Shown in pieces: positions 17,560-18,267 of a stretch of 64,000 nucleotides of DNA; the stretch's first letter is position 1; every line of letters begins with the position of its first letter. Where the stretch lies: assembly GCF_016026235.1 (NCBI RefSeq), contig NZ_CP065613.1; one strand, given 5' to 3'. The DNA comes from Escherichia coli (lineage in GTDB: Bacteria > Pseudomonadota > Gammaproteobacteria > Enterobacterales > Enterobacteriaceae). Position numbers and translations under genes: made by a program. The notes under the pieces are model-generated. The model made no database searches. It was not told where the DNA came from and was given only the letters and a program-made list of their open reading frames with translations.

Positions 17560-18267
17560 TTAAGGTCTCCTTAGCGCCTTATTGCGTAAGACTGCCGGAA
17601 CTTAAATTTGCCTTCGCACATCAACCTGGCTTTACCCGTTTGTTATTTGGCTCGCCGCTCTGTGAAAGAGGGGAAAACCTGGGTACAGAGCTCTGGGCGC
17701 TTGCAGGTAAAGGATCCATTGATGACGAATAAATGGCGAATCAAGTACTTAGCAATCCGAATTATTAAACTTGTCTACCACTAATAACTGTCCCGAATGA
17801 ATTGGTCAATACTTCCACACTGTTACATAAGTTAATCTTAGGTGAAATACCGACTTCATAACTTTTACGCATTATATGCTTTTCCTGGTAATGTTTGTAA
17901 CAACTTTGTTGAATGATTGTCAAATTAGATGATTAAAAATTAAATAAATGTTGTTATCGTGACCTGGATCACTGTTCAGGATAAAACCCGACAAACTATA
18001 TGTAGGTTAATTGTAATGATTTTGTGAACGGCCTATACTGCCGCCAGGTCTCCGGAACACCCTGCAATCCCGAGCCACCCAGCGTTGTAACGTGTCGTTT
18101 TCGCATCTGGAAGCAGTGTTTTGCATGACGCGCAGTTATAGAAAGGACGCTGTCTGACCCGCAAGCAGACCGGAGGAAGGAAATCCCGACGTCTCCAGGT
18201 AACAGAAAGTTAACCTCTGTGCCCGTAGTCCCCAGGGAATAATAAGAACAGCATGTGGGCGTTATTC

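Follow-up and report, generated by a model that had tools for sequence, protein, structure and literature searches.

The divergent gltA-sdhC control region of Escherichia coli and a possible ERIC-derived small RNA target site in the sdhC leader

The gltA-sdhC spacer and its promoter core

The window, i.e. the whole stretch of 64,000 nucleotides of E. coli DNA that was analysed, contains the genes gltA and sdhC, which are separated by a spacer of 708 bp (17560..18267). The gene identities and the divergent 708-bp spacer, proposed in an earlier note made from the sequence, agreed exactly in their coordinates with the ORF list and the annotation.

16276..17559, minus strand: coding sequence of gltA (citrate synthase), from the ORF list and the RefSeq and K-12 annotation; its start codon at 17559 bounds the spacer
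18268..18657, plus strand: coding sequence of sdhC with the K-12-type start ATG 18268 (MIRNV), from the ORF list and the annotation
17642 (G/T) and 18030 (G/A): SNPs between O157 and K-12 in the spacer

The start assigned to sdhC by PGAP is the ATG at 18253; comparison across species favours 18268. The spacer is identical to that of E. coli K-12 (b0720-b0721) at 706 of the 708 bases, the differences being two SNPs, matches O157:H7 at 100 % and is found in 5425 of 5426 complete E. coli genomes. In an alignment of 79 Enterobacteriaceae species the two genes are kept as divergent neighbours with a long spacer. The spacer is almost certainly the divergent control region already described for gltA and sdhCDAB-sucABCD in E. 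coli, and most of it is transcribed leader. The region is already known and is among the best-characterised regulatory spacers of E. coli, nearly all of its features having been published. Its sequence features, their conservation and the homology to ERIC elements were determined here, and transcription factor binding, ORF translation, RNA 3' ends and the Spot 42/Hfq mechanism were taken from the literature.

The distal gltA transcription start site (TSS, 17858) and that of sdhC (18049) were derived indirectly from the coordinates of the ArcA sites (Park 2013 supplement); the Cappable-seq supplement gave no coordinates matching this region. The shared core between these outward starts spans 191 bp, in which both ArcA sites are found along with the CRP site and a box resembling that of Fur.

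17895..17926, plus strand: ArcA site I, TTGTAACAACTTTGTTGAATGATTGTCAAATT, -68..-37 of the distal gltA TSS (Park 2013 supplement)
17958..17973, plus strand: CRP-type site, cGTGAcctggaTCACt, centred at -83.5 of the sdhC TSS (consensus scan)
17978..18031, plus strand: ArcA site II, four direct repeats, -71..-18 of the sdhC TSS (Park 2013 supplement)
18006..18024, plus strand: Fur-box-like sequence (13/19, consensus scoring) over the sdhC -35 region
18011..18039, plus strand: sdhC sigma-70 promoter, TTGTAA-17-TATACT (promoter scan), ending 10 nt before TSS 18049

The flanking genes, the 708-bp length, the promoter hexamers and the TSS geometry are the same as in the K-12 gltA-sdhC region (gltAp1/p2, sdhCp), and so are the ArcA operators except for the SNP at 18030. 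Both published operators are present at their published TSS distances, site I with direct-repeat matches at 17896 and 17907, and site II with the one SNP, which falls inside its last repeat and within the spacer of the sdhC promoter. Five ArcA direct-repeat matches were found in the gltA-sdhC spacer, compared with about 0.7 expected. The sdhC promoter has 99 % column identity across species.

The CRP-type site has conserved half-sites and a variable spacer in the 79-species alignment. The CRP consensus scan gave no enrichment relative to shuffled sequences (19 found, 28 expected), and since the consensus match alone is not above chance, the assignment is based on position, conservation pattern and the literature, where CRP control of the region is cited. 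A Fur score of 13 is reached by only 22 of about 128,000 positions, and Fur binding upstream of gltA and sdhCDAB has been reported (Beauchene 2015; ChIP). The CRP and Fur sites are consensus-level matches, and occupancy by ArcA, CRP and Fur in vivo, like promoter activity, is as described in the literature. The earlier note had named ArcA, CRP, Fur and small RNAs as inputs, and matching sites for these were found in the spacer and leaders; of the ArcA and CRP sites for which it suggested scans, both published ArcA operators are present, and the CRP-type match is that at 17958-17973.

The AT-rich centre which had been noticed at about 17760-17960 was borne out, its GC content being 0.289 (28.9 %) compared with 0.510 for the whole window; among all 201-bp windows across the 64 kb, no more than 0.56 % are as AT-rich. 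Such a composition, together with the repeated entry of ERIC elements into the gltA-sdhC spacer in other genera, could point to horizontally acquired or mobile DNA, for example an H-NS-silenced island or an IS/MITE remnant. This origin is, however, extremely improbable: the block aligns without indels in 79 species of many genera, with 62-98 % column identity, and houses mapped promoters and operators, and the sole mobile-element-derived piece of the E. coli spacer (18181-18239) is outside it. The AT-rich block consists of the two back-to-back promoter regions and the proximal gltA promoter. Binding of ArcA-P to operators overlapping the -35 regions would result in anaerobic repression, and CRP at -83.5 of sdhC would provide catabolite activation.

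The gltA leader and the small ORFs ybgU and ybgV

About 200-300 nt of the spacer is gltA mRNA leader, with starts near 17756 and 17858. The proximal start is reported to be at about 17756 (-196/-197; Wilde & Guest 1986). Two gltA TSSs, gltAp1 and gltAp2, have been described (Quandt 2015).

17560..17858, minus strand: gltA 5' UTR(s), from the distal TSS at about 17858 (-299)
17872..17877, minus strand: -10 element of the distal gltA promoter, a perfect TATAAT read from the sequence, overlapping the ybgU ATG (TATAATG)
17765..17872, minus strand: ybgU, 35 codons, MRKSYEVGISPKINLCNSVEVLTNSFGTVISGRQV (ORF list; MG1655 b4735)
17749..17781, minus strand: ybgV, 10 codons with a GTG start (MG1655 b4768), overlapping the 3' end of ybgU
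17738, minus strand: RNA 3' end mapped by Term-seq within the gltA leader (K-12 position 754647 in the Adams 2021 supplement, coordinates offset to the window)

The distal TATAAT is near-invariant in the alignment of the 79 species. The promoter scan flagged neither gltA promoter at its thresholds. The distance between the distal TSS and the perfect -10 is unusually large (13-14 nt), which may mean that the old S1 mapping of this start is imprecise. A 32-aa ORF in the gltA leader (17719-17621) was dismissed, its start codon being unconserved.

Leader ORFs do exist, as had been suggested earlier; they belong to the gltA side, however, and had already been annotated in MG1655. Both are identical to the annotated K-12 genes, ybgU coding for the same 35-aa sequence. 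The ATG of ybgU is upstream of the mapped distal gltA TSS (17858); the two ORFs overlie the gltA promoters and are readable only from the upstream transcripts.

That ybgU and ybgV encode conserved functional small proteins, the central block really being a small-protein locus, is suggested by their annotation in MG1655 and by the detection of tagged products of both, YbgU with an epitope tag (VanOrsdel 2018) and YbgV in the work in which ybgV was reported (Weaver 2019). In addition, PGAP predicts a hypothetical protein from the ybgU ORF in all 25 E. coli genomes sampled over the identity range, and the 35-codon ORF is intact in five of five Escherichia lineages and in scattered other genera. 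Outside Escherichia, however, the ORF is often broken: in Citrobacter, Enterobacter and Kluyvera a stop codon follows after 9, 13, 19 or 23 codons, and Buttiauxella, Atlantibacter and the K. oxytoca group have ATT, ATA or GTT at the position of the ATG. The variability of ybgU shows no third-position excess (permutation p = 0.25, codon periodicity being computed on reference columns only), and any two Escherichia sequences differ non-synonymously in 2-8 codons and synonymously in 0-3. The invariant bases at ybgU are those of promoter elements (TATAAT, TTGACC and GTTATTAGTG) and of an ArcA-like box, and the ybgV ORF varies from 1 to 27 codons across species. Purifying selection on the ybgU/ybgV coding sequence, sought in the 79 species as an intact ORF, a third-position bias and an excess of synonymous changes, was not detected. 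A small-protein locus is thereby improbable: on the comparative evidence, conservation of YbgU and YbgV as proteins is unlikely, and the ORFs behave like lineage-variable upstream ORFs. This low conservation matters for the reading of small ORFs which derive from ribosome profiling and overlap promoters.

A regulatory role as uORFs, in which translation of ybgV (and ybgU) on the long gltA transcript would tune gltA, for example through processing or termination near 17738, is possible, though doubtful. In Adams 2021 the pair ybgV-gltA is one of nine cases in which an uncharacterised uORF is followed by an RNA 3' end at a distance of less than 200 nt, here 11 nt past the ybgV stop codon. The ybgV GTG is kept in 78 of the 79 species, with an ORF of about 6-10 codons starting there in most, and a point mutation at -182 (window 17741) lowered gltA mRNA about tenfold (Quandt 2015). 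On the other hand, the GTG is inside the invariant GTTATTAGTG, which may be kept for promoter function instead, the 3' end at 17738 has no terminator hairpin and is not Rho-dependent (Adams 2021 supplement), and transcripts from the proximal gltA TSS bypass both ORFs. The arrangement resembles the mdtU type of uORF control (Adams 2021) in having a short ORF in a long 5' UTR and a 3' end just downstream. It differs in that mdtU has a conserved peptide C-terminus and Rho-dependent termination, whereas the ybgV and ybgU peptides are unconserved and the 3' end is not Rho-dependent.

The sdhC leader and its probable ERIC remnant

18049..18267, plus strand: sdhC 5' UTR, 219 nt (TSS 18049 derived from the Park 2013 supplement)
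18182 and 18189, plus strand: two Term-seq 3' ends (Adams 2021 supplement; K-12 positions 755091 and 755098)
18181..18239, plus strand: internally deleted ERIC/IRU repeat with both arms kept and the centre lost, between the ancestral leader and the Hfq/RBS module

The extra elements which had been thought plausible in the spacer do exist, namely ybgU, ybgV and the 3' ends at 17738, 18182 and 18189, and all had already been published. Of an antisense RNA, the other element proposed, no sign was found: the mapped outward TSSs are 191 bp apart, so that transcripts from 17858 and 18049 do not overlap, and the reported 3' ends are sense to the leaders. Two further ORFs were dismissed, a 34-aa ORF with a GTG start (18024-18128) which begins upstream of the sdhC TSS, and a 10-codon ORF with an ATG at 18125 which has no SD and is frame-shifted by 2-nt indels in Enterobacter.

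The sdhC-proximal part of the spacer had been described as GC-rich and potentially structured. Its GC content is mildly raised (0.578 over 18040-18200, a value reached by 10.7 % of windows in the 64 kb); the structure failed shuffle and covariation tests. A conserved, structured cis-regulatory RNA of a riboswitch-, thermosensor- or attenuator-like kind would explain both the conservation of the leader and its 3' ends. Column identity in the 79 species is 93-99 % over 18040-18090 and 86-95 % over 18130-18180, above that of much flanking coding sequence, RNA 3' ends fall within the leader, and the invariant UCUCCGG at its 5' end has a complement in CCGGAGG at 18170-18176, which is likewise invariant. 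However, a search of 16000-20000 against Rfam gave only RF00624 at 16184-16249, outside the spacer, a sub-threshold chance match of 20.9 bits (gathering score 43). The MFE z-scores against shuffled sequences were -0.07 (18046-18300), -0.08 (18049-18189) and +0.13 (18095-18160); that of 18176-18245 was -1.14. RNAalifold on 67 distinct leaders predicted 25 pairs; since nearly all of the paired columns do not vary, no pair shows compensatory changes. Neither 18182 nor 18189 has a terminator-like hairpin with a U-tract or is Rho-dependent (Adams 2021 supplement), and the end at 18182 would fit an RNase E-type cut (A|AU, U at +2). The conservation could equally reflect protein or sRNA binding sites, and a structured regulatory RNA is considered unlikely.

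The 3' ends at 18182 and 18189 adjoin the left border of the segment 18181-18239, which appears to be the remnant of an ERIC element. The segment is absent, leaving a clean empty site, in 59 of 78 species (exact gap 18181/5-18237/8) and is missing from about 75 % of genera. At the same site six species have full-length ERIC copies of about 125 nt, and further ERIC copies are present elsewhere in the gltA-sdhC spacer of other genera. The long copies at the sdhC site align end to end with ERIC copies bearing exact ERIC1R/ERIC2 primer sites; the ERIC centre is diverged in these same-site copies (CGCTCACCCCGGTGAC...) and exact in the reference copies L006, L076 and L077. The terminal arms of 18181-18239 are homologous to ERIC arms in the alignment, and the central inverted repeat (ERIC1R/ERIC2 primer region) was not found in this segment. 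BLAST arms of the Citrobacter short forms are 90-97 % identical to the long form, over spans that include 9-11 nt of conserved flank, and the E. coli arms are about 70 % identical as judged by eye. The identity of the E. coli remnant thus appears to follow from a chain of homology whose links are the short forms of Citrobacter and the long same-site copies.

E. coli genomes match the long ERIC form at 3 places each (median) and at no more than 7, and all of the best matches listed were over no annotated feature. ERIC (enterobacterial repetitive intergenic consensus) or IRU elements are imperfect palindromes of about 127 bp in transcribed intergenic regions, and the sdhC remnant is likewise inserted in a transcribed leader with a clean empty site. 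The E. coli copy differs in being about 57 bp long, made up of the arms only, and its fold is weakly hairpin-like (z = -1.14). Internally deleted ERICs have reportedly been described before (Wilson & Sharp 2006). The sdhC leader would have been lengthened by insertion of an ERIC in the Escherichia-Citrobacter-Salmonella lineage, with later loss of its centre.

Small RNA target sites in the two leaders

Pairing with small RNAs was assessed with a seed-restricted scan of 30-nt windows, ranked against 42,648 windows on both strands of the 64 kb. Whole-length duplexes between the sRNAs and the leader were dismissed as unrealistically long and no better than shuffled sequences (z = -0.3 to -0.8).

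17680..17693, minus strand: GAGCUCUGUACCCA, complementary to nt 3-16 of Spot 42, in the gltA leader
18106..18134, plus strand (K-12 755015-755043): predicted complementarity to nt 33-61 of RyhB, located upstream of the published site at the RBS
18108-18120, plus strand: CUGGAAGCAGUGU, within the predicted RyhB site, from the sequence
18212..18225, plus strand: AACCUCUGUGCCCG, with which nt 3-16 of Spot 42 can pair, in the ERIC right arm and at -56..-43 relative to the sdhC ATG
18238..18252, plus strand: AU-rich (ARN)5 stretch, AAUAAUAAGAACAGC, read from the sequence, -30..-16 of the sdhC ATG, adjoining the RBS
18239-18267, plus strand: RBS-region complementarity to RyhB, dG -17.5, in essentially all 79 species
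18243-18259, plus strand: RBS-region complementarity to RybB, dG -15.2, in essentially all 79 species

Complementarity to Spot 42, RyhB and RybB was found in the sdhC leader, as had been anticipated; the interval of 18150-18300 proposed for such a scan misses the sites at 18106-18134 and 17680-17693. According to the literature three sRNAs target sdhC, and gltA is a published target of Spot 42 (Spf). Tracing of the sites in the 79 species assumed that the Spot 42, RyhB and RybB seeds are the same across genera.

The Spot 42 site of the gltA leader has a dG of -20.4, which places it in the top 0.09 % of the 42,648 windows, and GCUCUGUACCC in this leader is present in 79 of 79 species. The Spot 42 site of the sdhC leader is the best of the 64 kb (dG -24.3) and is strong only in species with the short ERIC; the remnant in which it lies is restricted to Escherichia, Citrobacter and, in weaker form, Salmonella. 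The ERIC remnant appears to have been co-opted as the sdhC Spot 42 site.

At -56..-43 the site is too far upstream for ribosome occlusion, and an AU-rich stretch is present at the translation initiation region (TIR). Spot 42 is described as bringing Hfq to the sdhC TIR, at an Hfq site 'close to the RBS', in the part of PMC8544716 that summarises Desnoyers & Masse 2012. The stretch AAUAAUAAGAACAGC is nearly invariant across species and is likely to be this Hfq site next to the RBS, its exact position being predicted. The order of seed complementarity 43-56 nt before the start codon, followed by an AU-rich/ARN stretch near the RBS, is the same as in the Spot 42-Hfq repression of sdhC in that summary. 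The pairing and Hfq coordinates given here are predictions, and neither the location of the site in an ERIC remnant nor the ERIC nature of 18181-18239 was met in the literature searched. Because its site is within the ERIC remnant, Spot 42 would bind too far upstream to block the ribosome and would act via Hfq. RyhB and RybB would pair at the ribosome-binding region of sdhC itself, next to the AU-rich Hfq site.

The predicted RyhB site at 18106-18134 (dG -30.1) is the single best of the 42,648 windows in 64 kb and is kept at -23 or better in Escherichia, Citrobacter, Salmonella, most Enterobacter, Lelliottia, Leclercia, Silvania and Huaxiibacter. A description of this complementarity was not met in the literature searched. 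ChiZ and IspZ are reported to be sRNA sponges derived from 5' UTRs (Adams 2021); a fragment of 134-141 nt from the sdhC leader (18049 to 18182/18189) would likewise carry a long RyhB complementarity. No evidence was found of an sdhC 5' fragment accumulating, binding Hfq or titrating RyhB, and a decoy function is hypothetical. The reporter constructs sdhC258 and sdhC576 already contain the site at 18106-18134, so they can be used to test it directly.

Taken together, the sdhC leader may tentatively be read as a mosaic, in which an ERIC entered between an ancestral leader and the universal Hfq/RBS module and its centre was then lost, the right arm giving a Spot 42 site restricted to Escherichia and Citrobacter (and Salmonella), the Spot 42 site of the gltA leader being ancestral. 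The reading includes the strong RyhB site at 18106-18134, on a 5' fragment ending at 18182/18189, as a second regulatory site or a decoy. The suspected extra elements were already in the annotation or the literature, and the comparative work on the spacer makes modest contributions. The ERIC origin would account historically for the unusual mechanism at sdhC, in which Spot 42 binds 'too far upstream' and Hfq is used, and the leader, if it is a mosaic, would be a testable case of a bacterial MITE-like repeat (ERIC) supplying a target site for an sRNA.

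Locus boundaries and promoters

The locus is the known gltA-sdhCDAB control region. A 911-bp query across the interval was 100 % identical to O157:H7 and was found in 5425 of 5426 complete E. coli genomes, and the spacer between gltA (16276-17559, minus strand, from the ORF list) and sdhC differs from that of MG1655 by two bases, at 17642 and 18030. The latter, G in O157 and A in K-12, falls within both the final direct repeat of ArcA site II and the sdhC promoter spacer. Counted with the K-12 sdhC start (ATG 18268, 129 aa), the spacer (17560-18267) is exactly 708 bp, whereas the PGAP annotation of O157 starts at ATG 18253 (134 aa). 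This upstream ATG is ATT in three distant species, in two of which, as in a Serratia, a GTG aligned with E. coli sdhC codon 5 is the apparent start, and the spacing from a GUGGG motif to the K-12-type start is constant at 8-9 nt. These observations favour 18268. One SdhC scan of Enterobacteriaceae species representatives gave 80 loci, with gltA and sdhC as divergent neighbours in 79 and most spacers of 637-897 bp; these align well across species, with many blocks above 90 % identity.

Features of the gltA-sdhC spacer
17749-17781, minus: ybgV, 10 aa, GTG start (MG1655 annotation)
17765-17872, minus: ybgU, 35 aa (MG1655 annotation)
17877-17872, gltA strand (minus): perfect TATAAT
17895-17926: ArcA operator TTGTAACAACTTTGTTGAATGATTGTCAAATT, -68..-37 of the gltA transcription start site (TSS) (Park et al. 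2013, supplementary tables)
17958-17973: predicted CRP-type site, centre -83.5 of sdhC; half-sites conserved, spacer variable
17978-18031: ArcA four-repeat site, -71..-18 of the sdhC TSS (Park et al. 2013, supplementary tables)
18006-18024: predicted Fur box, 13/19 match
18011-18039: sdhC promoter TTGTAA-17-TATACT (promoter scan)

Counting from the operator distances of Park et al. (2013), distal gltA transcripts start at about 17858 (-299) and sdhC transcripts at 18049 (-219). The outward starts are therefore just 191 bp apart, and transcribed leader makes up some three quarters of the "spacer". A proximal gltA TSS presumably lies at about -196, near 17756. Work by Wilde and Guest in 1986 reportedly gave TSS positions concordant with -299 for gltA and -219 for sdhC. 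Of the ArcA and CRP sites for which the earlier note proposed a scan, both published ArcA operators and the CRP-type match are present, and the spacer has five ArcA-type direct repeats where about 0.7 would be expected. An invariant TTGACA at 17923-17918 might mark a further upstream promoter.

The very AT-rich centre described earlier was borne out, with a GC content of 0.289 at 17760-17960 compared with 0.510 for the whole window; just 0.56 % of 201-bp windows have so little GC, the rest of them lying downstream of gltA, upstream of cydA and near 1545-1751. Two stretches match this core in AT-richness, 15821-16328, downstream of gltA, and 34822-35136, which has several ArcA-type repeats and is probably the cydA upstream region.

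An ERIC remnant and the Spot 42 site in the sdhC leader

A segment of 55-57 bp at about 18181-18239 is missing, with a clean empty site (GGAGGAAGGA|AAYAATAAG), in 59 of 78 species, including Klebsiella, Enterobacter, Kluyvera, Raoultella and Buttiauxella. At the same position six species (two Lelliottia, one Leclercia, Huaxiibacter, K. spallanzanii and strain RIT714) carry an element of about 125 bp, which can be aligned over its full length with repeat copies at other places that contain, without mismatch, the sequences of ERIC2 and ERIC1R, the standard ERIC-PCR primers; the two primer sequences occur together in 233 papers. Only the arms are retained in Escherichia, most Citrobacter and Salmonella. 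The long form has a median of three and up to seven matches per E. coli genome, about 70 % identical across 98 % of the element, and none of the best matches listed overlaps an annotated feature. The MG1655 annotation has no repeat at the remnant. A 9/10 ArcA direct repeat (GGTTAACTTTCTGTTA; 18200-18215, minus strand) lies within the remnant, in the transcribed leader.

Further ERIC copies are found in the spacers of other genera, after 17599 (loci L016, L022 and L024 of the comparative set), 17612 (L076, L077) and 17774 (L073), and a full-length copy lies in or next to the spacer of another locus (L006:375-481). ERIC elements have evidently inserted into this spacer repeatedly. Lelliottia, Salmonella and C. 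sedlakii have short inserts of 42-53 nt near 17599-17622 that may be further remnants, and possible remnants also follow 17622. Independent full-length sites include the gltA 5' UTR, the ybgV/proximal-promoter region (Buttiauxella noackiae) and a position just downstream of gltA (Escherichia sp. MOD1).

Small-RNA pairing was predicted with MG1655 sequences, 30-nt windows being ranked among all 42,648 from the two strands of the 64 kb; as the earlier note had anticipated, complementarities to Spot 42, RyhB and RybB were all found in the sdhC leader. Nucleotides 3-16 of Spot 42 have their best site in the window at 18212-18225 (predicted dG -24.3), which places it within the remnant's right arm, 43-56 nt before the start codon and ahead of the near-invariant AAUAAUAAGAACAGC. 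This complementarity is strong (-21 to -25) only in species with the short ERIC, being weaker in Salmonella (-17.4), and is at background (-12 to -16) in species with the empty site or full-length ERIC. PMC8544716 describes Spot 42 as binding too far upstream at sdhC and recruiting Hfq to the initiation region, a mechanism with which the position of the predicted site and AAUAAUAAGAACAGC agrees. The literature searched, which did not include Wilson & Sharp 2006, gave nothing relevant on ERIC with sdhC or Spot 42. The same Spot 42 nucleotides pair with the leader of gltA, a known target, at 17693-17680 (predicted dG -20.4, top 0.09 %), the core GCUCUGUACCC being present in 79 of 79 species.

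RyhB complementarity and leader structure

At the sdhC ribosome-binding region, complementarity to RyhB (18239-18267) and RybB (18243-18259) is modest and occurs in essentially all 79 species. The top RyhB complementarity of the whole 64 kb was unexpectedly predicted at 18106-18134 (dG -30.1), with a 13-bp run of CUGGAAGCAGUGU against ACAUUGCUUCCAG; it is kept in several genera, its three variable positions having only pairing-compatible transitions. The literature searched, the primary sdhC sRNA paper not among it, did not mention this site.

The sdhC-proximal part had been described as GC-rich with potential structure. It is only mildly GC-rich (0.578, equalled or exceeded by 10.7 % of windows), but the structure was not upheld: folding was no better than chance in four sub-regions (z -0.07, -0.08, -1.14 and +0.13), RNAalifold on 67 distinct orthologous leaders gave zero compensatory pairs, because the paired columns are invariant, and no Rfam family matched. 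The sdhC mRNA begins with UCUCCGG (18049-18055), seven bases complementary to CCGGAGG (18170-18176), about 120 nt downstream, and both are invariant or nearly so in the 67 leaders; the GGA-rich CCGGAGGAAGGAAA alongside might bind CsrA or Hfq. A sub-threshold match of 16184-16249 to the Pseudomonas sRNA P9 (20.9 bits, gathering score 43) was dismissed as chance; it coincides with the gltA terminator hairpin, at which a 3' end is reported (K-12 753129, window 16220; Adams et al. 2021).

Small ORFs and RNA ends on the gltA side

The extra elements suspected earlier are real, namely ybgU, ybgV and leader 3' ends, but already published. Chromosomal tagging revealed YbgU (VanOrsdel 2018), and tagging together with initiation-complex ribosome profiling revealed YbgV (Weaver 2019). 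One of the uncharacterised uORFs near which an RNA 3' end lies is "ybgV-gltA", and Term-seq ends at K-12 754647(-), 755091(+) and 755098(+) correspond to 17738, 18182 and 18189, none of the three being Rho-dependent (Adams et al. 2021).

The 35-codon ybgU ORF is unbroken in five Escherichia lineages and scattered other genera, is cut to 9-23 codons in many Citrobacter, Enterobacter and Kluyvera, and lacks its ATG in Buttiauxella, Atlantibacter and the K. oxytoca group. Third codon positions showed no excess variability (p = 0.25), non-synonymous differences exceed synonymous ones within Escherichia, and the invariant bases coincide with promoter-like elements (TATAAT, TTGACC, GTTATTAGTG) and an ArcA-like box. 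The ybgV GTG is near-universal, with ORF lengths of 1 to 27 codons. We conclude that both are translated yet unconstrained ORFs that overlie promoters, although ybgV might act as a regulatory uORF. The ybgU ATG overlaps the invariant distal gltA -10 (TATAATG; 17870-17877, minus) and is therefore upstream of the mapped distal TSS. At that TSS, within the widely conserved AAAAGTTATG, an AUG (17858-17860, minus; ATA in Buttiauxella) begins an ORF of 14-17 codons in another frame (MKSVFHLRLTYVTVWKY in E. coli), which could be leaderless or a coincidence.

The LTEE-related gltA2-R point mutation, at -182 of gltA, reduces mRNA about tenfold (Quandt 2015). Since it maps to about 17741, past the proximal TSS and 3 nt from the 17738 3' end, it may act on RNA, not the promoter.

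The region had been described mostly accurately, and nearly all of its features are already published; what may be new is of an evolutionary kind, namely that the Spot 42 site derives from ERIC and that there is a candidate second RyhB site.
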